Below, in pieces: positions 107 through 27,903 of a DNA stretch of 32,000 bases (the first letter of the stretch is position 1; each line of letters starts with the position of its first letter). Source of the stretch: an uncultured bacterium (GTDB lineage Bacteria > Margulisbacteria > WOR-1 > CAVSGV01); assembly GCA_963699255.1 (NCBI GenBank), contig OY969425.1, positions 30,001 to 62,000 of the forward strand, given 5' to 3'. Position numbers and translations under genes: made by a program. The notes beneath the pieces were generated by a model. It was not told the DNA's origin. It ran no database searches and saw only the letters and a list, made by a program, of their open reading frames with translations.

Positions 107-3100
107 ATGGGTGAGCAAGTAAGACTGGGAACGACCACGGATTATTATAGTCCGCAGCCGATAGATGTAGGGCACGATAAAGTAACCGGAGAAGAAATAT
201 ACAGGCAGAGAACTTACGCGAAATGCAGCGTGGGCAAACAGAGCAACCTGACATTGGATGCCGCGCTTGATGAGGTTGAATCAGAGAAGATAGATTATCT
301 GAATAAAAAACAGCCGTCACAGGCCTTTGGATGCATGATCCAGGCAGCCGGACTTTACGGGAACAGGGACGACATTGGCGACCGGAAAAAAGCATATTTA
401 TTGCTCCGCAAAATAATAGTCCTGGCAAGCAAAGATACGATAGAAAGAACGAAAAAGACCATTGCCTATGGCGTGCCGGGCGGAGAAATAACAACCGCTG
501 AATTTGCAACATTTGACCCTAAGTTTTTGAAAGATCCCCAGGTGCAGGAAGCCCAGGCGAAGATCGCTATAGCTGATCTGGTCCTGAAGCAGCTGAACGA
601 CAATGAGGTCCCGGATGTTAAGGTTGTAGACCCAAAGATCACAGACGCGACAGCCTACGCGATAAGCTGCTGCCAGTCCGCGAGAACCGCCCTTAACGCG
701 TTTAAATACAAAGACGATTTCAATATAAGCAAGAGCTACATACTAGAGGCAAAATTGATGGCTTTGAGTAAAGCATCGGATGACGATGTCCGCGCGAAAC
801 TTAAGTCAGCGCACATCGATTGGAACGCGATCAAAGACCGCGTTTCGGATGATCCGAATGTCAAAGATGAAAGCCTGAGGCCGGCCGGGATGAGCAAGGA
901 TGACTACATTGAAGAGATCAGGAAAGGCACCGTATACATCAATGCGTGGGCGATGGTTGAAGACGCGCATCTTACCGACCAGAAGGTGAACGTCAGCACG
1001 GAGGACATATCCGCGAAGATAGGTTTATGCAGTGATGCTCATGTAATGCTTTCCGGCAAGGACACGGACAACGGCATAGACAAGGCAAAGGATTATATTA
1101 ACCACGACGCGTTTTTAACAGAGGCGAACCTTACCGCGAAACTTGCCCGCCTTAACATTAATGATCCGGACAAATATAGGGGCGGCTTGAATGACGCAAG
1201 GGCCCTGTATAAAGAAATATCGGAGAAAACCGCGTTCAGTGATATAAAAGCTATCGCGATCGCAGCAAAAATATCCATCGATATGGAGCTTGGCGAATTC
1301 ACATGGGATGACGCGAAAAGTGCTTTAGAGGCTTATTTTGATCCAACAACCAGCACATTTCCCCTTAAATCCCCATTCGCTGAAAATTCATTCACATACC
1401 TGTCCATGGAGCTCCTGGAGGCCCAGCTGAGGAATACAACGCAAAGGAAGAAAGTGTGGGTCCCCGGCTGCGGCGATTGCACATATAAAACGAAGACCGA
1501 AGTTGCTGATTATACCCTCGCGGGGATAAGGACGGACAACGTGAAAAAGGCCATTAAAGCCAGATCAGTTAAGGCGGTCAGGGATCCGGAGGCGCTGAAC
1601 GACCTTAATATCAGGGCAAGTCTTGAACACGCCAGATCAACAGCTTTGGAAGGCATAGCGCTAAGGGACGATATCGCCAAAAGGGCGAAATTCAATGACG
1701 ACGCCATAAAAGAGCTTACGGATATCCTGGGCCCCACCGGCCTTAATGAAACCACGGACAATATATTGAACAATCTCGGCGGCAAGAGAAAAATGGAAAG
1801 CTCCTTCTATGTGACGCTGTGGGGGGAATGGGCGAATTACCTGGAGCAGATAGCGTGGCTGGACAGCAAGGATAAGCCGGGAGACATGAACATATTTAAA
1901 GCCGCCAATGACAAATACGATGAAACAATAAAGCTCTGCGGTTATTCAAAGGCCACATATGACAAAGGGGTAGCGGGGCAGGAAAGCGCCAGGAAGCAAA
2001 TGATAAAGCTTTCCAAGGACAACATTAAAAATTCCGTGGAGAATAATATTGAAGTTGCCGCGCTTACCAACCCGGACGCGCAAAAGGCGATAACCGCTTT
2101 GGATGGTGTTATCAAGAACATCGGCGACTTCAAGATACCGTCCGAGTTCAAAGGCACGCAGCTGGTAAAAATGCAGGCGGAATTGAACAGGAGAAAGCTG
2201 GAGATCCGCTGCAAAGAGGTGTTCTACATAAACAAACAGCCGACCAGCTACCTTTACACCAGCAGCAAGACGAACGCTCCGATCAGCGCGGATGACAAGA
2301 AAAAAGATGTCAGCGCGGATGACAAGATAAAAGATGTCAGCGCGGATGACAAGAAAAAAGATGTCAGCGCGGATGACAAGATAAAAGAGCTGTATCAGCA
2401 GATCAATGACCTGGCGGACAAAACGCTCCCGTACCTGGATACCCCGTATTATTCCATTTTGAACCTGTTCGGGGTGAATTCTGTTTACATGAGGATAAAT
2501 AAAGATGCGGCCGCGGACGAGATAGTCGCGCTGTACGGCAATTATATAAAGGGAAAGGATTTTGAAACAACTTACGACATGATAGACCCCCTTGCGAATG
2601 CCGCTTTAATAAGGACCGGCAGAATTAAAACAGCAAAGGGAGCCGACACAAATCTTAAGGGCGAGATAATGGATTATCTAACTACATTATTAACGGGATC
2701 CAAGACGACGGCTGCTGACAAGGCGAAAGCTTATGTCTGGAAAGCGCGCATGAATGTCTGGTTCAAGGATAGCCAGGATCTAAACCAAGCGTTGAAAGAT
2801 TATGACGAGGCGATCAAACTTTACGGCACTATTACGGACGGCAATAAGCTTTACGGGAACGGCGCGTCAAAACTGGCTGTAATGGAGGAGCGATCGTTCG
2901 CCCAGTTCATGCTCGTGAACGATACCAAGAAAGGCGACGCGAATGCGAAGGATAGAATCGGTCAATACCAGCAGATCGCCAAGTATATCAACGATAATAT
3001 CCTTAAGGGGGCCGCAACGACCGGCTTGAGCGAGGAGATCGCGAAGAAAGTGGATAAGCAGGACGCGGCGGCAAAAATAAAGGCGCGCCTCACCCTGATA

Positions 3101-4486
3101 TCCATGACCATGGGCATCGCCGAACCTCTGAAAAAGGGCCTCCTGGCGGATCCAGTGATGGTCACGGCGGTTACGGATATCTGCGGCGAGAACATCACGG
3201 ACGAGAACAAGCTTTTTGTCAAAACGGAAGAATTGTTCAATAGCGTTACAGCCGATATAAAAAAGCTTGGATTGATCGATACTGAGATGGTGAGCCTGGG
3301 GATAGATGTTCCCACTGTTTACGCGCGCATGGCCGAAAACTACATGATCCTGGCGTTAGAAGCCATGGTGCCTGGCAGAGATATTGATGATGCTGATGAT
3401 TTATTAGAAGACTTGAAGGACGAGAAAGCCTCAATGGAAAATACTAATACCAGCTCAATGCCGGCAAAACGACTCGAACGGTTCAATCAAAACATGAAAG
3501 CGATTTCAGACGCGATCCTTAAAGTAAGTTCCGCCCTGACTCAAGTTCAGAGCAAGAAGAACATTATTGCCCAGAACGCGCAAAAATACATCGAAAATAT
3601 GAACAACTATTTAACTAAAGCTGCAAGTATCGCGGAAAAGGACGCTAACAGCTTAGCGCAGGCTAAAGCCCTTCTTGTTCAGGCGCAATACGCAGGCTGG
3701 ACTGCGGGAAGTGATATTGACAAGTTAAAGGTAGCTCGAGGGTTATATGAAAAAGTCATCAGCATAAATCCCGTCGCTATGGATATGAAGGCGAAATTGG
3801 ACTATGCCGGCGTGATCTCGATCATATCGTTAAGGCTCCTGAAAACTGACAAAACAGCGGCGGCGGATGTAGCCAATATAGCCATAAGCAAATATAAAGA
3901 GGTAAAGACGAATGACGATATCGCTCTTGGCGCCAGGGCTTGCATAGAAATGGCGAATCTTCAAGCTGCGTTCGCAGTTGAAGATGGGACCAAGCTGAGG
4001 GAGGCGCGGGCAAGTGTCTACGACGCCCTTATAAAACTTACAGGATCGAAACAGGATACCATGGGATACATTAACCTGGTGAACGGCATGATCAACCTGA
4101 ATAAGCCCGTCGATAAAACAATAATACAAGCCCTCTGCTATCTTGGCGTGATCGAAGCCAGATTGTACACGTCAAAGACTAACCTGACGGAGCCGCAAAG
4201 ATTGGCGGGGTATAATGCGATAAAAGGGATTATGGGCGGGATCGGAACTGTTACCGGCGGCATATACGGTATTATCAAGCAGCAGAATCTGGAAGGTGAC
4301 GCCTCATTGAAAGTAGTTATGAAGCAATTTATGGATTTTAAGGCTGAGGTGGTGCTTGCCTGGGGAGATGCCGGAGGAGACGAGTCAACTGATGAATATA
4401 AACAGGCAAGCTACAAAACGTCTAACTATGATGCCAGGGTGCAAGAAGCCATAGAGAAATTAAAAAAATTAGAGGATATAAAATAG
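107..4486 (+). CDS. 1459-aa helical, TPR-like repeat protein of unknown function, no signal peptide
   Basis: ATG at 107 is preceded by AGGGGGA (93-99), followed by 4.4 kb of open frame. The protein is K/D/A/E-rich with recurring TPR-like signatures (KAYVWKARMNVWFKDSQDLNQALKDYDEAIKLYG; ANDKYDETIKLCG; ARGLYEKVISINP). It contains an internal SADDK(K/I)KDV x4 repeat and a C-terminal glycine-zipper GIMGGIGTVTGGIYGII. I recognise no family by eye. Confidence 0.85.
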   Translation: MGEQVRLGTTTDYYSPQPIDVGHDKVTGEEIYRQRTYAKCSVGKQSNLTLDAALDEVESEKIDYLNKKQPSQAFGCMIQAAGLYGNRDDIGDRKKAYLLLRKIIVLASKDTIERTKKTIAYGVPGGEITTAEFATFDPKFLKDPQVQEAQAKIAIADLVLKQLNDNEVPDVKVVDPKITDATAYAISCCQSARTALNAFKYKDDFNISKSYILEAKLMALSKASDDDVRAKLKSAHIDWNAIKDRVSDDPNVKDESLRPAGMSKDDYIEEIRKGTVYINAWAMVEDAHLTDQKVNVSTEDISAKIGLCSDAHVMLSGKDTDNGIDKAKDYINHDAFLTEANLTAKLARLNINDPDKYRGGLNDARALYKEISEKTAFSDIKAIAIAAKISIDMELGEFTWDDAKSALEAYFDPTTSTFPLKSPFAENSFTYLSMELLEAQLRNTTQRKKVWVPGCGDCTYKTKTEVADYTLAGIRTDNVKKAIKARSVKAVRDPEALNDLNIRASLEHARSTALEGIALRDDIAKRAKFNDDAIKELTDILGPTGLNETTDNILNNLGGKRKMESSFYVTLWGEWANYLEQIAWLDSKDKPGDMNIFKAANDKYDETIKLCGYSKATYDKGVAGQESARKQMIKLSKDNIKNSVENNIEVAALTNPDAQKAITALDGVIKNIGDFKIPSEFKGTQLVKMQAELNRRKLEIRCKEVFYINKQPTSYLYTSSKTNAPISADDKKKDVSADDKIKDVSADDKKKDVSADDKIKELYQQINDLADKTLPYLDTPYYSILNLFGVNSVYMRINKDAAADEIVALYGNYIKGKDFETTYDMIDPLANAALIRTGRIKTAKGADTNLKGEIMDYLTTLLTGSKTTAADKAKAYVWKARMNVWFKDSQDLNQALKDYDEAIKLYGTITDGNKLYGNGASKLAVMEERSFAQFMLVNDTKKGDANAKDRIGQYQQIAKYINDNILKGAATTGLSEEIAKKVDKQDAAAKIKARLTLISMTMGIAEPLKKGLLADPVMVTAVTDICGENITDENKLFVKTEELFNSVTADIKKLGLIDTEMVSLGIDVPTVYARMAENYMILALEAMVPGRDIDDADDLLEDLKDEKASMENTNTSSMPAKRLERFNQNMKAISDAILKVSSALTQVQSKKNIIAQNAQKYIENMNNYLTKAASIAEKDANSLAQAKALLVQAQYAGWTAGSDIDKLKVARGLYEKVISINPVAMDMKAKLDYAGVISIISLRLLKTDKTAAADVANIAISKYKEVKTNDDIALGARACIEMANLQAAFAVEDGTKLREARASVYDALIKLTGSKQDTMGYINLVNGMINLNKPVDKTIIQALCYLGVIEARLYTSKTNLTEPQRLAGYNAIKGIMGGIGTVTGGIYGIIKQQNLEGDASLKVVMKQFMDFKAEVVLAWGDAGGDESTDEYKQASYKTSNYDARVQEAIEKLKKLEDIK
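2285..2392 (+). repeat. In-frame tandem repeat, 27-bp unit x4 (equivalently 54 bp x2)
   Basis: agcgcggatgacaag(a/at)aaaa(a)gatgtc is repeated head to tail and encodes SADDKKKDV-SADDKIKDV-SADDKKKDV-SADDKIKEL. The first three units are exact apart from the alternating KKK/KIK codon. Confidence 0.95.
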
Positions 4487-4499
4487 GGGAGACGAAAAA

Positions 4500-6587
4500 A
4501 TGAGCTCAGCCGGTAGAATATCAGGTTCCATGTACCAGACGTTTTCTAGCGATTCCATCGCTCAGGATACCGTACACATACGCAACAATAAAATATCAAA
4601 GGAAGACCTGAAAAGGATAACGTCGCAGAAGGATGCGAACAGTAAAACAGTTTCTATCGTTTTCGATCAGAACGAAGTTGGCAAGAATGACCAGAGTCAA
4701 ACCCAGCCGCAGGGCCAGCAAACACAGACCCAGCCAAAGGATACGACAAACAATGTGACCAGGCAGCCGTTCGAGTTCCCCGGATGGAAAGATGCCGAGC
4801 AGCTAAAAAAATATCAAGAGATCGAAAATGACATTCTTTGCGCGGATATAAACTATTATAACGGCAACATACCGGAATTTCACAAATACAGCGATTGGGC
4901 TATAGGTAATGGATATAAAAAGGATTCACCGTCAGGAAAGCGGTTTTGGCCCCAATTCAGGGAAATATCGCTCTATACCAAACCGATCATCCAAGTGTCC
5001 AGTTATTGGTCCAAAAGCAATATCAGGCCGGAATTTGTGAATTTTATAGATGAGAATAATATGGGCGCGGATGGGAAGATGCTGACGGACGGGGTGAAGC
5101 AGCCCTGGGAAAAATACTCATACATTTATAATGCCGATAGTACTAAGATAATCAGGCCCGATTATAAATTAAGCGATGTTAAACAGCCGCAGAACGCGTT
5201 GACAACGCAGGTCTCATACATAATCCCGAATTTTGACTTTGAGGGCAAAGGTTTTAACACCAAAAATGCCAAAGACCGGATACTGGACCTTCAGGGGACC
5301 CTGATCGTGGACCTGCTCAAGACCGACTACAACGGGACCCTCAACACAGGGTTCAACTTATACTCTTTTATCAATCCCGATCATCCTGAATATACTCTGA
5401 ATTACCTGAAGAAACTTAACGGGAATGAATATACGGCATGCGAATTCGGGCCTGTTTATTCCCAGCATGTGTTATTCGGACTCGCCCAGCCTTTGTTCGG
5501 CACGCTTCCCGAAATGCCTCAAGCGATCCGCTGGCTGGTCCCTATTTTAGTGAACAAGCTGTCGGCAACATATGAGAACACACTGACGGAAATGAGCATG
5601 AGAGCTTTTCCGAATTACGCGTACAACGAATCGACAAAGAACCTGGCGAATTATATATACGATTATGCACACAATGAATCCACCAACATCCTGGCGCCGG
5701 AGGGAATTAAGGGACTTTTTGTCAGCGACCTCCAGTCTCTCACGCTTGGTTTTGAGTCTCGAACGCTGACGATGTTAAAGAACAAATGGCCGTATTCGAT
5801 ATATCCCGCCCTGATATTCAAGTATAAATTCTCCTGGCTTTCCAGCAACATGCCGGACCCGTATTATCTGTCCGAAAAGTATTATGTCCCGCCTTTTTAT
5901 GATAAGGACGTTAAGCTTACCCAGGCCCAGAGGGACACCATAATGAACGATTATGTCAATAATTACCTGCCGGAGAGAAGTGAAAATAAGGGACTTACCG
6001 CCAACGAGATGACTCTCGGCGCGAGGGTGAATTTCCCGGGCTTTGCGCAGCTCCTTACCGGCATGGGGATCCTGAGCATCCCTGACGGAGGGGCCGACCA
6101 GACAAAGACCCTTTTTCAGTACACCATCACCGGTTATGATCCGATACGGAACACGGGGGGGAACGGGCTTTCCCCGGCATATCTGAACCACTTCGCGGAG
6201 TATCATCTGGATGAGTCCGGCAACCTTGTGAAGGTGGGCAGCAACTATCACGCGCCGATAGAGCCGTATAAAGGGCATTCATGGCGTTTTTCACTGGACA
6301 ACAATATCAGACTGAGCAAGGGCCCCGATCTGGATGATAAGGGAAATGACATAACCACAGGGATCTACATGCCTGTTGGATTCAGCATAGGCGGAGGCAG
6401 CTACACGGTGGGTGGAGTTAAGAAGCACTCGTCCGAGTGGAGCTTCAATATAGGACTGGGCATAACGGACCAGGCGACCTTAAGATACACCATATCCAAG
6501 AACAACAACGGGTATGATTATGATGAGGCCGTTCAATCCTTGACGTTCACATGGATGTTCGACGAACCGAAGAAACATAAGAAATGA
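4500..6587 (+). CDS. 695-aa hypothetical protein, beta-rich and aromatic/Asn/Gly-rich, no Sec signal peptide, disordered Q/T-rich N-terminus
   Basis: ATG is 14 nt after the upstream stop, with a GGGGAG RBS (4486-4491). The N-terminus MSSAGRISGSMYQTFSSDSIAQDT has no hydrophobic h-region. A QSQTQPQGQQTQTQP low-complexity tract follows. The C-terminal third shows alternating hydrophobic patterns (SEWSFNIGLGITDQATLRYTIS, SLTFTWMF). Confidence 0.85.
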   Translation: MSSAGRISGSMYQTFSSDSIAQDTVHIRNNKISKEDLKRITSQKDANSKTVSIVFDQNEVGKNDQSQTQPQGQQTQTQPKDTTNNVTRQPFEFPGWKDAEQLKKYQEIENDILCADINYYNGNIPEFHKYSDWAIGNGYKKDSPSGKRFWPQFREISLYTKPIIQVSSYWSKSNIRPEFVNFIDENNMGADGKMLTDGVKQPWEKYSYIYNADSTKIIRPDYKLSDVKQPQNALTTQVSYIIPNFDFEGKGFNTKNAKDRILDLQGTLIVDLLKTDYNGTLNTGFNLYSFINPDHPEYTLNYLKKLNGNEYTACEFGPVYSQHVLFGLAQPLFGTLPEMPQAIRWLVPILVNKLSATYENTLTEMSMRAFPNYAYNESTKNLANYIYDYAHNESTNILAPEGIKGLFVSDLQSLTLGFESRTLTMLKNKWPYSIYPALIFKYKFSWLSSNMPDPYYLSEKYYVPPFYDKDVKLTQAQRDTIMNDYVNNYLPERSENKGLTANEMTLGARVNFPGFAQLLTGMGILSIPDGGADQTKTLFQYTITGYDPIRNTGGNGLSPAYLNHFAEYHLDESGNLVKVGSNYHAPIEPYKGHSWRFSLDNNIRLSKGPDLDDKGNDITTGIYMPVGFSIGGGSYTVGGVKKHSSEWSFNIGLGITDQATLRYTISKNNNGYDYDEAVQSLTFTWMFDEPKKHKK

Positions 6588-6631
6588 GCCGCGCTTTAAG
6601 GATTTTCCCGTCCAGAAAAATCATTAAAAAC

Positions 6632-6659
6632 TGAAATTCTTCATAAGATCCGACGATAA
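6632..6659 (+). promoter_or_regulatory. sigma28-class-like promoter upstream of the 6722-8527 gene
   Basis: TGAAATTC (6632-6639), 12-nt spacer, GACGATAA (6652-6659). It ends 62 nt before ATG 6722 and lies in the 134-nt intergenic gap. Confidence 0.45.
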
Positions 6660-6721
6660 TATAGTATAGGGAAAAAGCGTCTTTCGGGCTTGAGCGTAGC
6701 ATATAAGGAGATAAACAGTAT

Positions 6722-8527: not shown

Positions 8528-8566
8528 TGTTAGAAAAAGTAAGGGGTGTAAAAGGGGGAATAAGAT

Positions 8567-9418
8567 ATGCCTATTAGCGCATTATCATCGGACTCAACAA
8601 GCACGGTAAAGCCGGTTATTTTAAATAATAATTTAGCAAAATCTGATTCGACAAAGACGGATTCAACGTACGTCATGCCGCTGGTCTACCCTGACGGCAC
8701 TTTCAACCAGAAACCGGCTAAAGGGAAAAAAGAGGCAAATACCTGGGGGATAACTCCTCTCATTACCGAGGATCAGAACAGGAATGGCGGCACTGTAGGG
8801 GCTAATGTGGATCTCTGGCGCTTGATGTCGAAGGACGATAAGGGCACTTTTGACTTCGGCGTTGAGAACAGGATGGGCAAGGATCTCAGCACCAATAAGA
8901 ACATGTTGAGCAAAGATCTTAATGTATACGCATATATTGATCCGGGCGTGTGCAAGATCGGGACGTTCAATAGGAACCTGAAATTCCTTGGCGAGCTTCA
9001 GATAAGGCCGACCGTGGACCTGAATTACGGCTATAACTCAGAGTTCAAAACGAACAGACTTGATGGTTTCGGGTCGTTCGCAATGGGGCTTAATAAACCG
9101 TTCCAGTCCGACAAGTTCAAACTTGTCAATTACTTTGGCTTTACTGTGGCTTATTCCGGAAGCGCCGCGCTGAGCGGAAAAAAGATGGATGTTCTCCTGG
9201 GAAATTATGAGGATAACGGGGAGGCGGCGGACAGGGAATTATCGGTGAAAACAGAGATACGGTTCGCGCCGAAACCGGGTTCAAGTATCTTTGATTTCGC
9301 GGACATATATATGAAGAACAATCTTGGGAGGGACCCCTTCAATCCGTATCTTACTTCGAGAGAGAAATTCAGGCTCGGGGGGTATCTTCAGCGTCGACAG
9401 GAGCAGGTTTATCCTTGA
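8567..9418 (+). CDS. Fragment 1 of a frameshifted ~646-aa hypothetical beta-rich protein (whole gene 8567-10507)
   Basis: GGGGGA RBS at 8553-8558. The N-terminus is MPISALSSDSTST, with no signal peptide. The frame is lost at the G6 run 9377-9382, and sensible sequence continues in the next frame (..REKFRLGG|IFSVDRSRFILDVEAYK..). Confidence 0.75.
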   Translation: MPISALSSDSTSTVKPVILNNNLAKSDSTKTDSTYVMPLVYPDGTFNQKPAKGKKEANTWGITPLITEDQNRNGGTVGANVDLWRLMSKDDKGTFDFGVENRMGKDLSTNKNMLSKDLNVYAYIDPGVCKIGTFNRNLKFLGELQIRPTVDLNYGYNSEFKTNRLDGFGSFAMGLNKPFQSDKFKLVNYFGFTVAYSGSAALSGKKMDVLLGNYEDNGEAADRELSVKTEIRFAPKPGSSIFDFADIYMKNNLGRDPFNPYLTSREKFRLGGYLQRRQEQVYP

Positions 9419-9947: not shown

Positions 9948-10159
9948 CCACGTGGCAGGACGGCGGATCGGCTCCTGTTAAACTATATGTAAGGAGCGTA
10001 AAGCTTATTGACAATGCCCATAACCGTATCTGGGGCCTTAATTCTGCCGGAAAATGGGTACCGCTTTCAGGGGCTCAGCCTACAACGTCGCCGGAAATCC
10101 TGCCGGAATCGAAATTTAATCTCTCCGGCGGATCGCGAACATTCACTTTTCCGGCGGAT

Positions 10160-10507: not shown

Positions 10508-10512
10508 AAGGC

Positions 10513-10528
10513 CCGCAATCGATTGCGG
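10513..10528 (+). terminator. Perfect 16-nt palindrome/hairpin 6 nt after the stop at 10507
   Basis: ccgcaatcgattgcgg is fully self-complementary. No T-tract follows, so terminator function is uncertain. Confidence 0.3.
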
Positions 10529-10633
10529 TGCCTCAGGAATAGGAGTAAAATATACATATATATGTAAAGGCCGGAAATGAAGGAAAACCGCGGGTAACCT
10601 GCCCTTGGCGGGTTTTTGGTCAGGAAGGATAAT

Positions 10634-19779: not shown

Positions 19780-22179
19780 ATGATAAAAATGAATTTAAAT
19801 AGAGGAGGGAAGATAGGGCTGCTGATGCTTATGGTGGCGGCAGTTCTGTGCGTAACCGCCAGTGCGTCATTTGCGGTCACGGATCAGACCTGGCTTAAAA
19901 CCGCTGCCGGGGGGCAGGTTGCTGCGGCCGGGAATTGCCGTTTTATAGCCGTTGCAAAAGGCGATGACAGCTACATCATGACAGAGGACGACGGCGGCGC
20001 GAGTTATGCCGACTCGAACGGTGCATATATGGCAGCTGGAACTACAGGATTTGCCAAAACGGACAGCACTCACTGGTCGACAGGATGGATCGTTGCAACG
20101 GATACTTACGCTATATGGGTTTCTTCGATCGCGGACGGTCAGACCGGCACTGCTTCAGGCACGATCGGCACCACTTCACCGAATTACACTACTCCGGGGA
20201 CCAACGCATCCCAGCTGTCTCTGGCAACGACCAGTTATATGGCCGCGCCGGGGAACTTTAAAGCATATGCCGGGGACAAAGTTGCATTATTGAAATGGGA
20301 TGCGGTGACAGGCGCAACAAAGTACAGGATATTCAAGGGACCGGTAACCGGCAATTCCAACAGTCTGTATTCAAAAGTGGGAACAACAACCGGTCTTTGT
20401 TATGAAGATACTTCCTTAACGGATGGAACGGCCTATTATTATATAGTTGTGCCTATGAACGGCAGCAATTGGTACGGTGTTCATGCCAATCAGTTATCGG
20501 TGACACCAAGCGCAACAGGCGCGCCGACCATATCATTGAACCCCACGACCGGTATCGTAGGCTCATCGGTCACGATAACCGGCACAAATTTTGGGGCCGC
20601 ACAGGGGACCGGGTTCGTTGAGTTCAATGGAGTGGTGGCTACGGTAACTTCATGGAGCGCTACTTCAGTGGTTGTAACAGTTCCGACCGGCGCGACAACG
20701 GGCCTTGTTTGTTTAGTTAACTCATCCAATGCCGCAAGCAATGGCGTCACTTTTACGGTTTCCACGCCCGGCACTCCTTCATTTACCAGTATTACTCCCT
20801 CAAGCGGATATAAGGGCGACACGCTCACAAGCGTTGCTATAGTGGGTGCGAATACGAACTTTGTTAATGGAACGACCACGGTGAGCATTAGCGGGAGCAA
20901 TGTGACCGTAAGCAATGTTACCGTGACCAACTCCACACATTTAACCTGTGATATCGCCATAGCTGCCGGGGCAGCCGCGGGAGCAAGGGATGTTGTTGTT
21001 ACGACCGGCAGCGAAGTCGTTACCGGGACAGGATCTTTCACGGTCAAAGCACCTGTATTCACGAGCATTTCTCCGGCCAGTGAAGCGGAGGGGACGACTA
21101 CCAGCGTGACCATAGTTGGAACAGGAACGCACTTTACCGGAACGCCTACTGTGACCTTTAGCGGGACCGGCGTTACCGCCAGCGGCATTTCTGTAACCGA
21201 TGCCACGCATTTAACATGTAATGCCGTCATCGTGGCCGTCACGGCATTGACAGCAAGGGATGTCACCGTAACGACCGGCAGTGAAACCGTTACCGGTACC
21301 GGCGTATTCACGGTCACTTCCGGAGCGCCGACCGTTACCAGCGTTTCTCCGTCAAGCGGGGCGTCGCCGGCTACGGGAATAACGATATCAGGAACGAATT
21401 TCAACGGCGTAACAGGTATAGTTATCGGCTCTACCGCGATAACCACATACACCGTTTCAAGCGCAACATCCATAACCGGCGTTTCCATCCCTTCCGGATT
21501 GGCTGCCGGAGCATATGATATAAAGGTCACGAACGCGTCAGGGACGAGCTCAGTTGTGGCAGGGGATAAATATACGGTAACACCCGGAGTGCCCACCGTT
21601 ACGAGCGTTTCTCCGTCAAGCGGAGCGTCGCCGAATACGGGAATAACGATATCAGGAACGAATTTCAGCGGCGTAACAGGTATAGTTATCGGTTCTACCG
21701 CTATAACCACATACACCGTTTCAAGCGCAACATCCATAACCGGCGTTTCCATCCCCTCCGGACTGGCTGCCGGTATATATGATATACAGGTGACGAACTC
21801 GTCAGGTCAGAGCTCGATCACGGCAGGGGATAAATATACGGTTATCGCCGGCGGCGGCGGCAATGGCTCGGGCATATATGAAGGAGCCGGCGGAGTAATG
21901 ATGGCTTATCCGAACCCGTTCAATCCGCTGGACAAGGCCAATCCGCTCAAGATGCTATTTAACGTGGCTACCGGAGAAGCGGTTGATATTTACATCTTTG
22001 ACACGAACGGAAGGGTGATCTACCAGGACAGGAACAGCGCGATCAATGCGGACAGAACGGTTACTTGGTCCGGAGACACAGCATATGGCGAAACAGTGGA
22101 TAACGGGCTCTACCTTATAAGGGTCGTAAACAACGGAAAACTGGTCGCAAAGGGCAAGATCCTGGTAATAAAGAATTGA
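19780..22179 (+). CDS. 800-aa secreted FN3 + IPT/TIG/Ig-repeat protein with a T9SS-type (FlgD-Ig-like) C-terminal sorting domain
   Basis: ATG 19780 follows GGGAGGA (19765-19771); the ORF track starts at 19735, inside the upstream gene. The signal peptide is KIGLLMLMVAAVLCVTASASFA. An FN3 domain is present (ALLKWDAVTGATKYRIF...YYYIVVP). Five IPT/Ig-like modules follow (SVTITGTNFG..). The C-terminus is AYPNPFNPL...VDIYIFDTNGRVIY...WSGD...NGLYLIRV...KGKILVIKN. Confidence 0.9.
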   Translation: MIKMNLNRGGKIGLLMLMVAAVLCVTASASFAVTDQTWLKTAAGGQVAAAGNCRFIAVAKGDDSYIMTEDDGGASYADSNGAYMAAGTTGFAKTDSTHWSTGWIVATDTYAIWVSSIADGQTGTASGTIGTTSPNYTTPGTNASQLSLATTSYMAAPGNFKAYAGDKVALLKWDAVTGATKYRIFKGPVTGNSNSLYSKVGTTTGLCYEDTSLTDGTAYYYIVVPMNGSNWYGVHANQLSVTPSATGAPTISLNPTTGIVGSSVTITGTNFGAAQGTGFVEFNGVVATVTSWSATSVVVTVPTGATTGLVCLVNSSNAASNGVTFTVSTPGTPSFTSITPSSGYKGDTLTSVAIVGANTNFVNGTTTVSISGSNVTVSNVTVTNSTHLTCDIAIAAGAAAGARDVVVTTGSEVVTGTGSFTVKAPVFTSISPASEAEGTTTSVTIVGTGTHFTGTPTVTFSGTGVTASGISVTDATHLTCNAVIVAVTALTARDVTVTTGSETVTGTGVFTVTSGAPTVTSVSPSSGASPATGITISGTNFNGVTGIVIGSTAITTYTVSSATSITGVSIPSGLAAGAYDIKVTNASGTSSVVAGDKYTVTPGVPTVTSVSPSSGASPNTGITISGTNFSGVTGIVIGSTAITTYTVSSATSITGVSIPSGLAAGIYDIQVTNSSGQSSITAGDKYTVIAGGGGNGSGIYEGAGGVMMAYPNPFNPLDKANPLKMLFNVATGEAVDIYIFDTNGRVIYQDRNSAINADRTVTWSGDTAYGETVDNGLYLIRVVNNGKLVAKGKILVIKN
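21322..21849 (+). repeat. Near-identical tandem 264-bp duplication (two IPT/TIG modules, 88 aa each)
   Basis: 21322-21585 and 21586-21849 differ at only a few scattered positions (GAPTVTSVSPSSGASPATGITISGTNFNGV... versus GVPTVTSVSPSSGASPNTGITISGTNFSGV...). Confidence 0.95.
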
Positions 22180-22252: not shown

Positions 22253-22493
22253 AAATGAACAGCCATGATACTAAAAGTTTGTCAACATTTTAATGGTTTT
22301 TCCCGTCCAATCTGTGGGGCTTCCGCTATTCTTTCATGTGATCGAACATCTCGAACGCGCGATATTTACATGTACATATATATACATAACAGACTTGATA
22401 TCAGGATCGCGGGCTCTGGAAGCGCGAAAAGAATTTGATGGAAAATCGTCCGCCGGAGGCGGGCGGTACCTTACCGGTAATTTTGGTGAAAAG

Positions 22494-22663: not shown

Positions 22664-25252
22664 ATGCTTGGTAAAAGAAAATATTGTTTAATATTCGCGC
22701 TGTGCCTCGCGGCATGCCTCATGAGCTTTACCCCGGCTTTTTCCCTTACAGCCGACCCGATGGATCTCTCGGTGGGAGCAAGGTCAATGGGAATGGGCAA
22801 CGCCTATGTCGCTCTCGGGGAGGATGCGGAGACCGTATTTGTTAACCCTGCGGGACTCGGGACCATATCCTCGCTAAAGCTCGGGAGCATGTACACGAGC
22901 CTTCTTGATGATGTGAATTATACGGTGATATCCGGCGTATACCCGATGGACAGTAATTCAGGCACGATAGGAGCCGGCATCATAAACCAGTCCGTATCCA
23001 GCATTCCTCTTTACAGCACCGAAGGGACGCCCGAAGGCAACGGCACGTACGGGGACAATGTCTTTTTTATCTCTCACGGATTCGACCTGAGCAAAAAAGG
23101 GATTGCTGCAAATAACCTCTACGGTGGATATACATTAAAATATTTCATGAAGAGCGCGAGCGGCCAGGATACCTCGGACATGACAGGCACCGGTTTTGCC
23201 GCGGATCTCGGGCTGTTATATAAACCAACAGGATCCATATCATATGGCTTGACCCTGCAGAACATACTTGCGGGCACAATGAACTATGCCAACGGGGATG
23301 AAGATGACATCGACTCCGCCATGAAGATCGGCACCAATATAAATCTCCTCGGCGACGCGCAGGGCGGAGACGCTATTTATCAGAACGATTCAAAGGTGAA
23401 TATGGCCCTTGAATATGACATAGGCCTCAGAGGGAAAGTCCCGGCCACGGCACACGTGGGATTTGAATATAAACCCCAGCTGGGCGTTAACTTTATAGAT
23501 AAGATATTAACTCTCAGGGCAGGCTTGAACCAGATCTCCAGCCCGACAGGTAACATAAGCGATGCCACAATCGGCGTTGGCATAAATGTCCAGGGCGTGG
23601 AATTCAACTATGCCTACAGCCCGATGTACGAAGACATTCCGGGAACATCGACCCAGTACTTCTCTCTGTCATATGTGGGCGTGCCTGCGCCGGTTAAACC
23701 GATAGAAGAAATGAAGCCTCTGATCTCGCAGGCGCCTATGCCCATGATCTCCATGGTAACGCCCGATGACAAACTCGTAACGAGCGCGTCAACGATCCTT
23801 GTCCAGGGCAGGGTATCGGTCCCCGCGAAGCTGGCAAAGCTGGAGATCAATAATGCGGGAGTGAACGTTTCCGATATAGGCGCGTTCGAGATGAACGTTC
23901 CGCTTTCTTCGACAGGCAAGCACCTGATAGTCGTCCGCGCGACGGATACAGCGGGAAAGACCGAGGAGCGCCAGATAAGAGTGGTAAGAATGTCGCAATT
24001 CACGGATGTTCCAAATAATCACTGGGCGGTAACCCCGATACAACAGCTTGCCACGGCAGGCCTGATAGAAGGGTATCCGACCGGGGCATTCCAGCCGGAA
24101 AGGGCGCTGTCCAGAGCGGAGCTTGCCACTCTTCTTGTGAAGAGCAAGGGCATAGAATCAGCTCAAGCTACTGGAAGGATATTTAAAGATGTGCCTCCTT
24201 CCCACTGGGCGGCAAAATATGTGAAAGACGCGGTCGCAATGGGGCTTGTTACGGGGTACCCGGACAGGACATTCAAGCCGAACAATAAGATAAGCAGAAT
24301 GGAAGGCGTGGCGGTCCTCGCAAGGTTCGGCGAACTTCAGCAGGCCGGGCTTACAGCGAACCCGTATCCGGATGTGTCTGCCAGGTCCTGGGCGTCTCCT
24401 TTCATAGCCGCCGCAAAGACAGCCGGATTGCTTGATTATATCGGCAACAATAACTTTGAGCCCAGGAGAACTCTTACAAGGGCTGAGGCAGCTGAGATGC
24501 TCGCAAAGACCACTTATGTCAAGGCAAAACTGGACAATCTTATGGACTGGACGGTCGGCTTTGCGCCTGAAACCGGAAAAGCGGTCGTGGCCGCAGCACC
24601 CGCTACGGTTACGGGACAAACCGCCAATGTAGTTGGATTGCCCGTGCCCGGCATGGGGACAATGGTAACGCCGGGAACCGAGTTTTCCGATATACCGGAT
24701 GATTTCTGGGCAAGTAACTCGGTCAAGTACATTGCCGCTGCAGGCGTCATGAAAGGGTATCCTGACGGTACATTCAAGCCGAATAAGATCGTGAGCAGGG
24801 CGGATCTCGCTTCAATACTCGTAAAAGCAAGAAGGATCCCGGTCAATAAAGTTGCCGTGACGCAGTATTCGGATGTTTCAAGGCAGAACGTGGCGGCGCC
24901 GTACATAAAGGCCGCGGTCGTTTCCGGATATTTAACGGGAAGAAAAGGCAGCAAGTTCGAGCCGAACAAAGGGGCGTCAAGGGCCGAAGCCGTCGCCGCG
25001 CTGGTAAAGTTCGACAAAATGGAAGTGCCGACAGGACTTCGCGAGGGGCCATTCTCGGACATGAAAGCTAAAGACTGGTCATCAAAGTACGTCGCCGCAG
25101 CGAAAGATGCCGGAATGCTGGAGTTCCTGCAAGGGGATAACTTTGAAGCGAACAAGCCCATAACCAGGGCGGAGCTTGCGGAGATGATCGCAAAGACAAG
25201 TTTCGGACAGGCGAAGATAGATCAAGTGAAATCTGCCGGCATATCTCAATAA
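22664..25252 (+). CDS. 862-aa fusion: PorV/PorQ-like (FadL-type) outer-membrane beta-barrel + Ig-like domain + six SLH domains
   Basis: AGGGGGAG RBS. The signal peptide is YCLIFALCLAACLMSFTPAFS. The barrel-family N-terminal signature is GARSMGMGNAYVALGEDAETVFVNPAGLG, followed by ~340 aa of alternating strands ending YFSLSYVG. An Ig-like domain spans about 23745-23990. Six SLH repeats lie in 23999-25200, each with the pattern F/Y-x-D-V/I..W(A)...GYPDGTFKP and the TRAE-type motif (SRAELATLL, SRMEGVAVL, TRAEAAEML, SRADLASIL, SRAEAVAAL, TRAELAEMI). They form two triplets split by an A/V/T/G/P linker. Confidence 0.85.
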   Translation: MLGKRKYCLIFALCLAACLMSFTPAFSLTADPMDLSVGARSMGMGNAYVALGEDAETVFVNPAGLGTISSLKLGSMYTSLLDDVNYTVISGVYPMDSNSGTIGAGIINQSVSSIPLYSTEGTPEGNGTYGDNVFFISHGFDLSKKGIAANNLYGGYTLKYFMKSASGQDTSDMTGTGFAADLGLLYKPTGSISYGLTLQNILAGTMNYANGDEDDIDSAMKIGTNINLLGDAQGGDAIYQNDSKVNMALEYDIGLRGKVPATAHVGFEYKPQLGVNFIDKILTLRAGLNQISSPTGNISDATIGVGINVQGVEFNYAYSPMYEDIPGTSTQYFSLSYVGVPAPVKPIEEMKPLISQAPMPMISMVTPDDKLVTSASTILVQGRVSVPAKLAKLEINNAGVNVSDIGAFEMNVPLSSTGKHLIVVRATDTAGKTEERQIRVVRMSQFTDVPNNHWAVTPIQQLATAGLIEGYPTGAFQPERALSRAELATLLVKSKGIESAQATGRIFKDVPPSHWAAKYVKDAVAMGLVTGYPDRTFKPNNKISRMEGVAVLARFGELQQAGLTANPYPDVSARSWASPFIAAAKTAGLLDYIGNNNFEPRRTLTRAEAAEMLAKTTYVKAKLDNLMDWTVGFAPETGKAVVAAAPATVTGQTANVVGLPVPGMGTMVTPGTEFSDIPDDFWASNSVKYIAAAGVMKGYPDGTFKPNKIVSRADLASILVKARRIPVNKVAVTQYSDVSRQNVAAPYIKAAVVSGYLTGRKGSKFEPNKGASRAEAVAALVKFDKMEVPTGLREGPFSDMKAKDWSSKYVAAAKDAGMLEFLQGDNFEANKPITRAELAEMIAKTSFGQAKIDQVKSAGISQ

Positions 25253-25320: not shown

Positions 25321-25354
25321 TTGACAAAATATACCCAATACCTGTATGGTGTAT
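25321..25354 (+). promoter_or_regulatory. Sigma70-like promoter with an overlapping imperfect palindrome (candidate autoregulatory operator)
   Basis: TTGACA (25321-25326), 18-nt spacer, TATGGT (25345-25350). The 24-nt palindrome ATACCCAATACC|TGTATGGTGTAT (25331-25354) pairs at 9 of 12 positions. The ATG at 25369 has no obvious SD, so the leader would be very short. Confidence 0.4.
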
Positions 25355-25368
25355 CATAGCGTATAAAT

Positions 25369-25629
25369 ATGGCTAATACAGGCAGGGAAGAAATAATAAA
25401 TCGGCTTAACCGCATAAAAGGGCAGGTGGAGGGGATACTGCGCATGGTGGACCGTCCGAAGCCCGCGGTAGAGATATTCCATCAGATCACGGCGGCCAGG
25501 AAGGCCCTTGATTCAACGGGGAGACTGCTGCTGGAGAATTATATCCAGGAAAATTTAAGCGGTGTATCAAGGTCAAAAGGGGATAGCGATAAGATCAGGG
25601 AAATACTCGAAATAATGGAGAAGTTCTAA
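25369..25629 (+). CDS. CsoR/RcnR-fold (DUF156) transcriptional repressor, non-canonical (no Cys/His ligand set)
   Basis: The 86-aa protein has the family signature INRLNRIKGQVEGILRMV....I.HQITAARKAL...LLENY. The usual ligand positions read Ala (PAVEIF, normally Y-C-I-D) and Tyr/Asn (LLENYIQENL, normally H..HC). Confidence 0.75.
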   Translation: MANTGREEIINRLNRIKGQVEGILRMVDRPKPAVEIFHQITAARKALDSTGRLLLENYIQENLSGVSRSKGDSDKIREILEIMEKF

Positions 25630-25671: not shown

Positions 25672-25687
25672 TGTCGCTTTCGCGACA
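25672..25687 (+). terminator. Hairpin after the regulator gene, followed by a T-rich tract
   Basis: tgtcgc-tttc-gcgaca forms a perfect 6-bp stem and is followed by taatatattattctttgttgtt. Flanking arms aacaacaa / ttgttgtt could extend the structure. Confidence 0.4.
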
Positions 25688-25759
25688 TAATATATTATTC
25701 TTTGTTGTTCATTGTGTCATTGTTAATTGTTCATTGTCCATTTAAATTGAAGGGGGTGT

Positions 25760-26749
25760 ATGTGTATGGTAGAATGTAACAAAATGAAGAGATTTGAAAG
25801 GGTGGGCATTGTAGGTCTGGCGCTGTTCCTGTCCCTCGCAAGCCTGCCGGCCGGCAGGCGGGGGGAGGCTTTTGCGTTCTCATCCCCTCCATCAAAAGAA
25901 AAGTCGGAAGCGCCAAAAGTGGTGAGCAGGTTCAGTGCGCCTCCTGCCGAAACAGATTGGCCCACCTTCCACGGGGATGTGGACAGGAACGGCATATCTC
26001 TTGCTAAATACATCAAGCCGCCGCTTTCTGTTAAGTGGGGATACTCCACCGGCGGGAACATATGGTCTTCTCCAGCCGTGGTCGCGGACACGCTCTTTGT
26101 CGGGTCGTCTGACGGCAAGCTGTACAGCCTGGACGTCGGGGACGGCAATATGCGCTGGGCGTTCAAGACGGGAGGCGCGGTATTCTCTTCTCCGGCAGTC
26201 GACAAAGGGAACGTATATTTCGGTTCGTCGGATCACATGTTTTACGCCCTGGATGCCGATACAGGGGACCTGAAATGGTTTTTTGAGACCGGCGACCAGA
26301 TAACATCATCACCCGCGGCCTATGAAGGCAGGATTTATTTCGGTTCGTGGGACGGCTCCATGTATGCCTTAACGGATAGCGGAGGACTGAAGTGGAAATT
26401 CCAGACTGACGGCGCCATATATTCATCTCCCGCTCTGGCTTACAAGAAGGTCTTTTTCGGCTCATCTGACGGCAAGGTGTACGCGCTGGACAGGGAAAAA
26501 GGAACCCTGTCTGGACGTTCCAGACAGACGACAACATTTCCGCGACCCCGTCCATCTCGGGGAAGGTCATTTATATCGGGTCATGGGACGGCAGCATGTA
26601 CGCTCTGGGCAGCGAGGACGGGAAGCTGTTATGGAAATTCAGGACCGGGGGAGGGGTTTATTCTTCGCCGGCGATATTGGACGATACGATCATTTTTGGT
26701 TCGTATGACGGCAAGCTATACTGCCTTGACAAACAAACGGGCGCGCTAA
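25760..26749 (+). CDS. N-terminal fragment of a frameshifted PQQ-like 8-bladed beta-propeller protein (whole gene about 25760-27903)
   Basis: GAAGGGGG RBS at 25750-25757; the likely start is ATG 25766 or 25784. The signal peptide is VGIVGLALFLSLASLPAG. Blades have the form SSPAV..g.vyfGSsDgklYALD..tG.lkW.F.T. After EKGTL (about 26509) the tracked frame turns into Arg/Ser/Thr-rich junk. Confidence 0.75.
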   Translation: MCMVECNKMKRFERVGIVGLALFLSLASLPAGRRGEAFAFSSPPSKEKSEAPKVVSRFSAPPAETDWPTFHGDVDRNGISLAKYIKPPLSVKWGYSTGGNIWSSPAVVADTLFVGSSDGKLYSLDVGDGNMRWAFKTGGAVFSSPAVDKGNVYFGSSDHMFYALDADTGDLKWFFETGDQITSSPAAYEGRIYFGSWDGSMYALTDSGGLKWKFQTDGAIYSSPALAYKKVFFGSSDGKVYALDREKGTLSGRSRQTTTFPRPRPSRGRSFISGHGTAACTLWAARTGSCYGNSGPGEGFILRRRYWTIRSFLVRMTASYTALTNKRAR

Positions 26750-27903
26750 GGTGGTTTTATGCCTCAAAAGATTCCGTTTACCATTCATCGCCGGTCGTTG
26801 CCAACGGCGTTGTGTATGTGGGGCTTGGCTACAAGAACAAGGTACAGGCATTTAACGCAAGGACCGGAGAATATTTGTGGAGCTATCCGACAGGAGCGTC
26901 CGTAGGGGCCACTCCGGCTATTTCCGAAACCAACATGTACATAGCCGCGTCGGACGGCAAAATATACGCCTTCGGGGACATTGTGCCTCCGGATGCAAAA
27001 GTTAATCCGCTTAAGATGGCGCACAATCGATATGATTTTGTTGTCAGCTGGTCGGGGGAGGACAAGGGGGGATCCGGTATAAGGTCCTACGATGTCCAGT
27101 TCAGGTCGGGAGCCGGAGAGCCGTGGCAGAACTGGCTTACGAACGTGGCGACCACGTTCGCCGTTTTCGGCCCAAATGATCCTGTAGATGTCAGGGATAA
27201 TACCGTTTATTATTTCCAGGCGCGGGCCCACGATCATGCGGGGAATGTCGGCGCTTACGCCGGCGGCGACGGGGACACTTACACGATCATCGATCTGACC
27301 CCGCCGAGGATCGCGAAAGTAAGCATAAATAATGTTCAGGTGCAGTCCGGAAGTTTCATAAGCGCCAAACCGCTCATCCAGGCTTCCATAAGCGACAATG
27401 TTTCCGTGGATCCGGAGAGCCTGAAAGTCTATATCGATAATGCCGAATTCATCCCGAACAGCTTCATAGGAGGGATCATGAAGTACCAGCACAAGATCCC
27501 GCTTACGCCCGGGAAGCACAATATAAAGGTCGTCGCGGAGGACACTTCCGGCAATTGGGCTGATACGTGGGAGGTAAAGAGCGTGAGGGTTTCTGAAGGG
27601 ATAGAGGCGGCGGATATCTCGGCTTATCCTACGCCGTTCAATCCTCTGGCCGGCCCTATATATATTTCTTACAGGCTTAACGCCAGCGCGGAAACCAACA
27701 TATACATTTATGAGAGATCCGGCTCCCTGATTTTTTCGATGAAATTCAGCGAGGGGGCGAACGGAGGAAAGCGCGGCTGGAACAAAATAGCATGGAACGG
27801 CGTATCGGCATCCGACAGCATCGCGGGGAACGGGGAATATTCCTATAAGATAGTCGCCAACAGGAATCTGGTCGGAAAAGGTCAGATAATAATACAAAAA
27901 TAA
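26596..27903 (+). CDS. C-terminal fragment of the same gene: remaining propeller blades + FN3/Ig-like domains + T9SS-type C-terminal sorting domain
   Basis: This frame is already meaningful from 26512 (WTFQTDDNISATPSISGKVIYIGSWDGSMYALG). The C-terminus is AYPTPFNPLAGPIYISY...NIYIYERSGSLIF...WNG...GEYSYKIV...GKGQIIIQK, which parallels the C-terminus of the 19780-22179 protein. Confidence 0.8.
   Translation: MYALGSEDGKLLWKFRTGGGVYSSPAILDDTIIFGSYDGKLYCLDKQTGALRWFYASKDSVYHSSPVVANGVVYVGLGYKNKVQAFNARTGEYLWSYPTGASVGATPAISETNMYIAASDGKIYAFGDIVPPDAKVNPLKMAHNRYDFVVSWSGEDKGGSGIRSYDVQFRSGAGEPWQNWLTNVATTFAVFGPNDPVDVRDNTVYYFQARAHDHAGNVGAYAGGDGDTYTIIDLTPPRIAKVSINNVQVQSGSFISAKPLIQASISDNVSVDPESLKVYIDNAEFIPNSFIGGIMKYQHKIPLTPGKHNIKVVAEDTSGNWADTWEVKSVRVSEGIEAADISAYPTPFNPLAGPIYISYRLNASAETNIYIYERSGSLIFSMKFSEGANGGKRGWNKIAWNGVSASDSIAGNGEYSYKIVANRNLVGKGQIIIQK

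Follow-up and report, generated by a model that had tools for sequence, protein, structure and literature searches.

Does a long run of same-strand envelope genes amount to one surface-display apparatus, and what might the proteins of no known family within it do? The question is raised by a 32-kb stretch of DNA from an uncultured member of the Margulisbacteria, positions 30,001-62,000 of contig OY969425.1 (assembly GCA_963699255.1), hereafter termed the window; coordinates given without a locus name are window positions. Candidatus Margulisiibacteriota is a diderm lineage, sister to Cyanobacteria. A first-pass annotation, made from the sequence alone, had described positions 107-27903 as a self-contained surface-display or attachment module, in which a block of four ORFan proteins (g1-g4) builds or exports a structure that downstream adhesins anchor or decorate. 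Its gene list, gene order and domain calls were borne out by the open reading frame (ORF) map and by family searches. We found that the locus contains two separately conserved units. Unit A comprises g1-g4 and a gene for a giant adhesin-like protein (giant). Unit B comprises a TIG protein with a C-terminal sorting domain (g6) and a PorV-SLH protein (g7). Lengths are in amino acids (aa), and "leaderless" means without a signal peptide.

107-4486, + strand: g1, 1459 aa, leaderless, Lys/Asp/Ala-rich, with an internal K/D-rich tandem repeat
4500-6587, + strand: g2, 695 aa, leaderless, predicted barrel
6722-8527, + strand: g3, 601 aa, leaderless, Ser/Asn/Ile-rich N-terminus, no known family
8567-10507, + strand: g4, ~646 aa, leaderless, in three frames, conserved C-terminal domain ending ..LGTTLQY
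10634-19754, + strand: giant, ~3040 aa, Sec signal peptide, adhesin-like
19780-22179, + strand: g6, Sec signal, FN3-like and IPT/TIG repeats (at least four TIG), type IX secretion system (T9SS) type A C-terminal sorting domain
22664-25252, + strand: g7, signal peptide, PorV/PorQ-family barrel, Glucodextran_B Ig-like domain, six SLH domains

A candidate sigma-28-class promoter precedes genes of both units

The motif GAAATT-N15-CGATAW occurs at four sites in the window, all on the + strand and all intergenic. The expectation estimated from shuffled sequences was 0.05 per window, and none of 100 shuffles reached four. The sites are listed with their counterparts in related loci, which are designated by L numbers; L006 is a contig from a congener and continues into L004.

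14..40, + strand: candidate sigma-28-class promoter upstream of g1 (GAAATTTACGACGAAACCTGCCGATAT); orthologous site before the g1 homologue of L006 (4547) and L011 (4910)
6633..6659, + strand: candidate sigma-28-class promoter upstream of g3; kept before the g3 orthologues of L002, L003, L006, L008 and L011
22495-22521 and 22575-22601, + strand: two tandem candidate sigma-28-class promoters upstream of g7

Both tandem sites before g7 are kept in L004 (4459 and 4540), and one of them in L013 (9868). An extended form, (A/C)(G/C)TGAAATT-N15-CGATA(A/T)-ATATA-gAGGG, recurs before orthologues, and its spacer sequence varies. The extended motif also stands before the g2 homologue of L006, with a near-match before g2 of L011. 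In L007, a cluster from a single amplified genome (SAG), the motif lies ahead of every gene, giant included. Single genes of unit A thus often have such a promoter to themselves. Beyond the window, the motif was found in L002, L003, L004, L006, L007, L008, L011 and L013. This conservation provides good phylogenetic-footprint evidence that the motif is functional.

The -10 element, xxCGATAA, has an invariant CGA core in all four window sites and in 16 sites of related loci. The -35 element is GAAA (within TGAAATT), exactly N15 away in every site, with G instead of T at the first position. The published sigma-28 consensus has GCCGATAA at -10 and TCTAAAG at -35 (PMC12784957); a second description gives T(A/C)AA-N16-GCCGATAA, in which CGA is the invariant core, and includes non-flagellar regulons (PMC12871210). 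TGAAATT-N15-CGATAW fits the consensus of the sigma-28/FliA/SigD/WhiG class, and the sigma factor that reads it would be of this kind. Thus, the shared promoter motif reported by the first-pass annotation is real, but it is not unusual as had been stated. The conserved common promoter argues for co-regulation of the g1-g4 block and the PorV-SLH gene, as that annotation had proposed.

A further copy of the motif lies at 19084-19110 of L004, before a 405-aa protein of ~10 TPR repeats, some 8 kb past thiC of the congener. Its presence suggests that the regulon reaches beyond the locus.

A different conserved element occupies the spacer between g4 and giant.

10508..10633, + strand: conserved intergenic element ahead of giant, consisting of a hairpin (CCGCAATCGATTGCGG), an AT-rich ATATACATATATATGTAAAGG box, and a second hairpin with a T-run

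The first hairpin and the AT box of this spacer are kept in L002 (6149-6220) and L006 (18139-18200). The AT box (AAAATATACATATATATGTAAAGG) resembles the ATATA..AGGG start region of the sigma-28-type promoters and has neither GAAATT nor CGATA. A similar AT box is present at 22360-22390. Generic sigma-70 and terminator scans of the window gave numbers close to the shuffle expectation, except for the promoter of g8 (described below).

Units A and B are conserved separately

The order g1-g2-g3-g4-giant is kept in six independent loci (L002, L003, L006, L007, L008 and L011/L012, several of which cover part of the block), at identities down to ~22%. Conservation of gene order in related genomes was a check that the first-pass annotation had proposed, and the block of g1-g4 with giant passed it. 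In L002, g2-g4 show 47-62% identity and giant 78%, and the intact g4 orthologue (641 aa) spans all three g4 pieces of the window at 56-67%. L003 covers g1-g3, and L008 covers g2 and g3. The L007 contig starts inside g2 and continues with two large leaderless proteins weakly similar to g4 and g3, and then giant. The most distant relatives, L011/L012 and the contig of P0016, have the order [2300-2600 aa]-[~1100 aa, glycoside hydrolase family 8 (GH8)]-g1-g2-g3-g4-[542 aa]-giant. Giant follows g4 directly in L002, L006 and L007, and follows the extra 542-aa gene in L011/L012.

Unit B recurs without unit A. L013, whose PorV-SLH protein is 59% identical to g7, has TIG/CBM11 proteins and a sigma-28-type promoter before the PorV-SLH gene and thiC-thiL-M20-NUDIX after it. 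The ~10 kb retrieved upstream contained no g1-g4 homologue, and L013 lacks g8 and g9. L014 likewise showed no g1-g4 homologue in the ~10 kb retrieved ahead of its PorV-SLH gene. In that locus the gene L14_1069, which encodes a protein with CBM11, TIG and a sorting domain, ends 3 nt before the PorV-SLH gene; its sorting domain ends in KGKILVIKRN, and that of g6 in KGKILVIKN. A TIG-type protein stands beside the PorV-SLH protein in L004, L013 and L014. A single self-contained module was therefore rejected, because units A and B are conserved separately (L013, L014). Of the module originally proposed, the conserved association of the ORFan block with giant held, and the inclusion of unit B did not.

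It could be argued that there is no single module and that nothing more than adjacency links the genes. In that case unrelated envelope genes would be neighbors within a leading-strand run, the PorV-SLH protein would be a housekeeping OmpM-like tether, and the motif would be a general promoter for abundant envelope proteins. Strand use agrees with this. All notable ORFs are on the + strand, so the co-directionality noted for 107-27903 is true; however, it is not specific to the locus, and the same strand is kept for every gene up to 31783. The genes after 27903 are thiC, a thiL-type AIRS gene, an M20 peptidase gene and a NUDIX gene, and GC skew is positive over the entire 32 kb, through these genes to the window end. 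Because the same-strand run extends into them, co-directionality delimits no module; it looks like a leading-strand property. The gene order of L013, the phylum-wide distribution of the PorV-SLH family (see below) and the motif copy before an unrelated TPR protein (L004 19084) also favor this explanation. It does not account for the association of g1-g4 with giant in six loci at such low identity, or for the TIG-type protein beside PorV-SLH in three loci, abutting and with a sorting domain in L014. These two linkages indicate at least two real functional units that share a promoter type. We consider mere adjacency doubtful, though less so than the other alternatives to our proposal.

Unit A is a leaderless, fast-evolving gene set with a secreted giant

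No match to g1-g4 was found in Pfam, NCBIfam, PDB sequences, PHROGs or PADLOC with single sequences or profiles, in agreement with the first-pass statement that the first four proteins belong to no known family. The same annotation called g1 TPR-like. This was not confirmed: Pfam and hhalign revealed no TPR in the window protein, and a weak TPR match was found in the L003 orthologue. The composition of g1 suggests that it is helical. Its tandem K/D-rich repeat (DDKKKDVSADDKIKDVSADDKKKDVSADDKIKE) has a period of ~54 nt and lies at 2305-2450, roughly residues 735-780. Profiles of g2, g3, g4 and the g7 PorV domain were mutually unrelated by hhalign, so g2-g4 are not detectable paralogues. Neither g1-g4 nor their orthologues matched flagellin, hook or rod domains in Pfam or NCBIfam.

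In unit A, giant always has a signal peptide, and every other protein lacks one. The giant protein combines a lactonase/YVTN-type propeller, an FN3-type array (fn3 E 1e-76; 14 regularly spaced module-boundary motifs), TIG, a CBM11-like domain and a duplicated ~100-aa C-terminal domain.

The g1 orthologues of L006 and L011 (1649-1754 aa) occupy the same position at 24-28% identity. Identity of g3 orthologues decreases from 58% in L002 to 46% in L006, 35% in L003 and 25% in L008, and g4 homologues reach 1325 aa in L006 and 987 aa in L011. Within the genus, identity to the congener differs greatly along the window:

Congener identity: ThiC 93%; g9 86-89%; g7 85%; giant ~76%; g6 55%
Congener identity: g4 ~50%; g3 46%; g2 28%; g1 24%

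The gradient is steep and suggests that g1 and g2 are the centre of diversifying selection or allele replacement. Judged by these alignments, unit A appears to be a fixed-position, very fast-evolving cassette, as expected of exposed structures.

Certain N-terminal motifs recur in different leaderless proteins. Two proteins of L007 (2202-2330 and 4633-4760) carry (I/L)xxAQADTGLDDLFGDT, and three proteins of L011 (10001, 11881 and 16719) start with MSDL..LFG or MSSSDGLF. In most members of the g2 family, a G-x-G-W-N-D-A motif stands ahead of the barrel. N-terminal motifs common to different leaderless proteins could be a common targeting or export signal.

g2 is a predicted outer-membrane-type barrel without a signal peptide

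The g2 family is rare. Three proteins were found among 5.8 billion, and a profile search yielded 15 clusters among 1.84 billion representatives. Repetition of the protein search with the 15-sequence profile gave the same three proteins, and the 3-sequence alignment, scanned against GTDB genomes and JGI metagenome contigs, gave nothing. One member, P0008, is encoded on a contig of Candidatus Margulisiibacteriota bacterium SAG AM-311-D05.

AlphaFold2 modeling of g2 with the 15-sequence multiple sequence alignment gave pLDDT 75.3 and pTM 0.75; the model from the 3-sequence alignment (pLDDT 36) was unusable. In the model, residues 1-93 are disordered, residues 98-160 are helical, and ~14 long beta strands follow. 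A Foldseek search of PDB ranked FadL and TodX first (E 2.5e-8), followed by BAM-complex chains, autotransporter barrels and PelBC; the matches listed for g2 are outer-membrane barrels or chains of outer-membrane barrel complexes. An aromatic residue, mostly Phe, is present at or near the C-terminus in all 15 family members (g2 of the window ends ..LTFTWMF), and the C-terminal pattern of the family, x-[VL]-x-[LA]-x-[YI]-[RK]-F, resembles the BAM beta-signal. From the model, g2 is predicted to be a ~14-stranded FadL/PorV-class barrel. No member matched Pfam (Toluene_X or similar) at E 0.1, and the g2 profile did not match the PorV domain of g7. A count of amphipathic strands failed to separate barrels from soluble proteins and was discarded.

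None of the 15 family members has a signal peptide. In the window, g2 starts 14 nt past the stop of g1, and its ATG is preceded at 8 nt by a GGGAG ribosome-binding site; the g2 homologues of L006 and L011 have a promoter and a ribosome-binding site immediately ahead of the start. This arrangement rules out a missed N-terminal extension. The leaderless state of this predicted barrel is the most surprising point of the locus; to our knowledge, a leaderless outer-membrane-type barrel has no precedent in bacteria. It conflicts with the rule that bacterial barrels are exported by Sec, and suggests either an export route not yet described or a barrel fold in an unexpected place.

Unit B encodes a PorV-SLH protein and its putative cargo

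The barrel of g7 (residues 34-337) scored 101.1 bits with the NCBIfam model NF033709 PorV_fam, above the cut-off of 90, and remained below the equivalog cut-offs for PorV (34.5 vs 250 bits) and PorQ (39.9 vs 220 bits). It is followed by the Ig-like domain (360-441) and the six SLH domains (446-862; SLH E 1e-65). On the order of a hundred clusters matched over the greater part of g7; the majority have ~630 aa, and the subfamily of the window has ~860 aa. The named homologues are from Margulisbacteria, Margulisiibacteriota, Saganbacteria or WOR-1 and, taken with the contig of P0008, place the window almost certainly in Candidatus Margulisiibacteriota. By these matches the PorV-SLH fusion is a phylum-wide family, already auto-annotated in GenBank. 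The first-pass call of a PorV-like barrel fused to six SLH domains was thus correct, but the protein is no one-off hybrid.

The sorting domain of g6 scored 30.7 bits with TIGR04183 (cut-off 23). A second candidate cargo protein is encoded downstream of g7:

25784-27903, + strand: g9, PQQ/BamB-type beta-propeller, signal peptide, C-terminal sorting domain of the g6 type, with a frameshift

The last ~95 aa of g9 align with the g6 domain (AYPxPFNP ... GNGxY ... GKGxIxIxK); on its own, the g9 domain is sub-threshold (FlgD_ig E 5e-4). The T9SS-type C-terminal domain assigned to both proteins in the first-pass annotation was therefore supported for g6 by the family model and for g9 by alignment. Classical signal peptides are present in g6, g7, g9 and giant.

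PorV is known to bind T9SS C-terminal domains (PMC5562754, PMC12618676), and diderm Terrabacteria, Margulisbacteria among them, tether the outer membrane by proteins that have both SLH and a barrel (bioRxiv 10.1101/2021.05.31.446380). By analogy, g7 probably both tethers the outer membrane and docks cargo.

No canonical secretion machinery had been recognized in the first-pass annotation, and family searches of the window proteins for T9SS core, type I, type II and type V secretion systems were likewise empty. PorK/L/M/N, Sov/SprA and PorU were found neither in the window nor in the Pfam lists of flanking genes of L004, L006, L011, L013 and L014.

Proposed explanation

We propose that the window genes are part of a cell-envelope regulon transcribed by a sigma factor of the sigma-28 family (FliA/SigD/WhiG-type). 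Like an OmpM-type tether, g7 would hold on to the wall polymer with SLH domains that extend into the periplasm, and its barrel would bind the T9SS-type C-terminal domains of g6 and g9 and hold both proteins on the surface. The g1-g4 proteins would leave the cytoplasm by a non-Sec route and form an exposed envelope structure that cooperates with the giant adhesin; g1 may be a large scaffold. The extreme divergence of g1-g4 between congeners would fit exposure to selection by phage, prey or host. We give this overall picture, a sigma-28-controlled envelope regulon with an exposed g1-g4 structure working with giant and with g7 as dock and tether, a probability of about 0.45; it is tentative. For the export route, the flagellar type III apparatus would be the most economical guess, since it would agree with promoters of the sigma-28 type, with N-termini that are disordered and rich in Ser/Asn/Ile, and with the lack of signal peptides; we hold this guess with far less confidence than the overall picture.

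Several points weigh against the proposal. Giant has no exact sigma-28 motif in the window, and the adjacency of units A and B is confined to this genus. Searches of the window and ~150 kb of related loci, rather than of a full genome, revealed no fliA, flagellar, T9SS-core, BAM or csaB genes. We know of no flagellar type III substrates that are beta-barrels, and a terminal beta-signal implies BAM-dependent insertion from the periplasm, normally after Sec export. The Foldseek TM-scores of g2 are 0.27-0.49 overall and 0.27-0.41 for FadL/TodX, the g2 model is built from 15 sequences, and g2 is the one protein of g1-g4 whose structure was predicted. Sorting domains in a bacterium without T9SS may be handled quite differently. 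As for the role that the first-pass annotation had speculatively given to the ORFan block, nothing was found showing that it builds or exports a structure. Literature searches gave nothing specific on Margulisbacteria motility or envelope, or on the sample accessions.

A bolder version of the proposal is that the g2 family represents the first bacterial outer-membrane-type barrels made without a signal peptide, within a novel sigma-28-controlled export and attachment apparatus of Margulisiibacteriota. The co-components would be g1, g3, g4, the leaderless GH8 protein and the further large proteins of relatives. They would exit by a non-Sec route, flagellar-type or wholly new, and the barrel would be inserted from the exterior, either in the outer membrane of the producing cell or in the membrane of a partner or prey, with the FN3 giant giving contact. 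We regard this version as unlikely.

Other explanations

The g1-g4 proteins could instead serve synthase-dependent exopolysaccharide export and processing of the BcsC/PelB/AlgK-AlgE type, with g1 as a TPR-like scaffold, g2 as the porin, GH8 in the role of BcsZ, and a polymer matrix bound by the FN3/CBM11 giant. A leaderless GH8-domain protein of ~1050-1240 aa lies directly upstream of the g1 homologue in the P0016 and P0018 clusters (1716-4862 in L011), CBM11-like domains occur in giant and in g6-like proteins, and the L003 g1 orthologue has its weak TPR match. The g2 model matched the PelBC transporter with TMt 0.49, behind only the BrkA and CymA barrels. However, no glycosyltransferase or synthase was found in any cluster, and g1-g4 and GH8 have no signal peptide, whereas BcsC, PelB, AlgK, AlgE and BcsZ are all Sec-exported. 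GH8 was not seen upstream in the congener, where two proteins without a Pfam match (1340 and 995 aa) precede g1 in L006 and neither has a GH8 domain, and Pfam and hhalign found no TPR in g1 of the window. The 2300-2600-aa protein ahead of g1 in the distant clusters has no Pfam match either, and the window itself begins too near g1 to show upstream genes. We judge exopolysaccharide export to be improbable.

The frameshifts of the window raise the question whether g4, giant and g9 are true pseudogenes and the locus encodes nothing functional.

~9377-9382 (G6 run) and ~9902-9920: frameshifts in g4, giving three frames
~10948: frameshift in giant
~26497-26506 (A5 run): frameshift in g9

Four frameshifts in 32 kb would be consistent with decay. 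At least three of the four are at short homopolymer runs (G6, G4, A5), and homopolymer indels are the pattern expected from long-read consensus errors. Relatives have intact single ORFs for g4 (641 aa, L002), giant (3506 aa, L004/L006) and g9 (706 aa, L004), and the broken pieces in the window are 56-89% identical to intact orthologues and have no internal stops. An independent Logan contig from the same run (L001) matches the window at 100% identity over 2359-9381, and its end coincides exactly with the G6 run. From the intact relatives, the homopolymers and the end of L001, we read the frameshifts as consensus errors; true pseudogenisation was rejected, and decay of the locus is very unlikely.

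A mobile, phage-derived or defence cassette unrelated to adhesion, made hypervariable by horizontal exchange, would fit the 24-28% identity of g1/g2 between congeners (flanks 80-93%) and the very narrow family distribution, but it was rejected as scarcely credible: PHROGs and PADLOC gave no match, IMG/VR viral contigs contained no g2 or g3 relatives, the Foldseek viral structure library gave only generic barrels for g2, the block edges show no integrase, transposase or repeat boundary, and the block has a fixed position and order by giant and a host-type promoter common to the PorV-SLH gene.

Neighboring genes

One small gene lies between g7 and g9:

25369-25629, + strand: g8, 86 aa, CsoR/RcnR/FrmR family, no cysteine

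Since g8 has no cysteine, the usual metal-binding residues are missing, and its description as a small atypical regulator in the first-pass annotation is fair. The gene has its own near-consensus sigma-70-like promoter, TTGACA-N18-TATGGT (25321-25350), and is probably a neighbor that does not belong to the system. What looks like an imperfect inverted repeat (ATACCCAATACCTGTATGGTGTAT) lies just upstream of g8; it could be the g8 operator.

The start of thiC is 4 nt past the g9 stop (27903-27908), and in L013 thiC directly follows the PorV-SLH gene. From this spacing and order, the thiamine genes seem to be co-transcribed with the envelope genes. Rfam gave no match anywhere in the window and no thiamine pyrophosphate riboswitch ahead of thiC.

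Significance

Some Margulisbacteria live attached to or inside other organisms. Here a sigma-28-type factor appears to run a cell-surface regulon, not motility genes alone. The combination of a PorV-class barrel with SLH domains suggests a route for T9SS-style display of sorting-domain proteins in a phylum not known for T9SS, and g7 would link outer membrane and wall through a domain arrangement that is new. Unit A is a lineage-specific, conserved and fast-evolving leaderless gene set that includes a predicted outer-membrane barrel.

Comparison with known systems

Unit B resembles the PorV/PorQ outer-membrane shuttle proteins of T9SS and their cargo in that g7 and g6 score above the cut-offs of the family and type A models, respectively, the g6 domain recurs in g9, and a gene for sorting-domain cargo adjoins the barrel gene in relatives. 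It differs in its host, Margulisiibacteriota (Terrabacteria) rather than Bacteroidota, in the fusion of the barrel to an Ig-like domain and six SLH domains, and in scores below the equivalog models; in addition, no PorK/L/M/N, Sov/SprA or PorU lies near g6/g7.

With the OmpM/SlpA/Slp tethers, g7 shares SLH and an outer-membrane beta-barrel in one polypeptide, which is their operational definition (bioRxiv 10.1101/2021.05.31.446380). The g7 family occurs throughout Margulisbacteria/Saganbacteria, where OmpM-type tethers have been reported. The canonical order is an N-terminal SLH, a coiled coil and a C-terminal porin; in g7 the order is reversed, with the barrel first. Moreover, the g7 barrel is of the FadL/PorV class and not a porin, there are six SLH domains instead of one, and the promoters are of the sigma-28 type. 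The SLH ligand of such tethers is a CsaB-dependent pyruvylated wall polymer; no csaB was present in the sequence searched.

The flagellar export apparatus also secretes non-flagellar proteins, such as Campylobacter FlaC/FspA/Cia. Sigma-28-controlled and flagellar-secreted proteins resemble g1-g4 in the promoter (xAAA-N15/16-xxCGATAA), the lack of a Sec signal, the apparently disordered polar N-termini and the high variability; the N-terminal likeness of g1-g4 to flagellar axial proteins was judged by eye only. In contrast, g1-g4 have no flagellin, hook or rod domain, and g2 is predicted to be a membrane-type barrel.

FadL and TodX are the best structural matches of the g2 model and have a strand count similar to that predicted, an N-terminal helical segment (which in g2 could form a plug) and a C-terminal aromatic beta-signal. 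Unlike them, g2 has neither family membership nor a signal peptide, begins with a disordered N-terminus of ~90 residues and is 200-300 residues larger. The exopolysaccharide systems AlgK/AlgE, PelB/PelC, BcsC and PgaA are similar in having a large, probably helical protein beside a barrel, with GH8 upstream in distant relatives and the Foldseek match to PelBC; they differ in that unit A has no synthase and no signal peptides on these proteins, with no TPR detected in g1 of the window and no GH8 visible in the window or the congener.

Set against these systems, the sigma-28 promoter class and the annotation of the PorV-SLH family were already known. The barrel-SLH architecture of a putative tether and cargo dock, and the leaderless lineage-specific gene set with a predicted barrel, are new.

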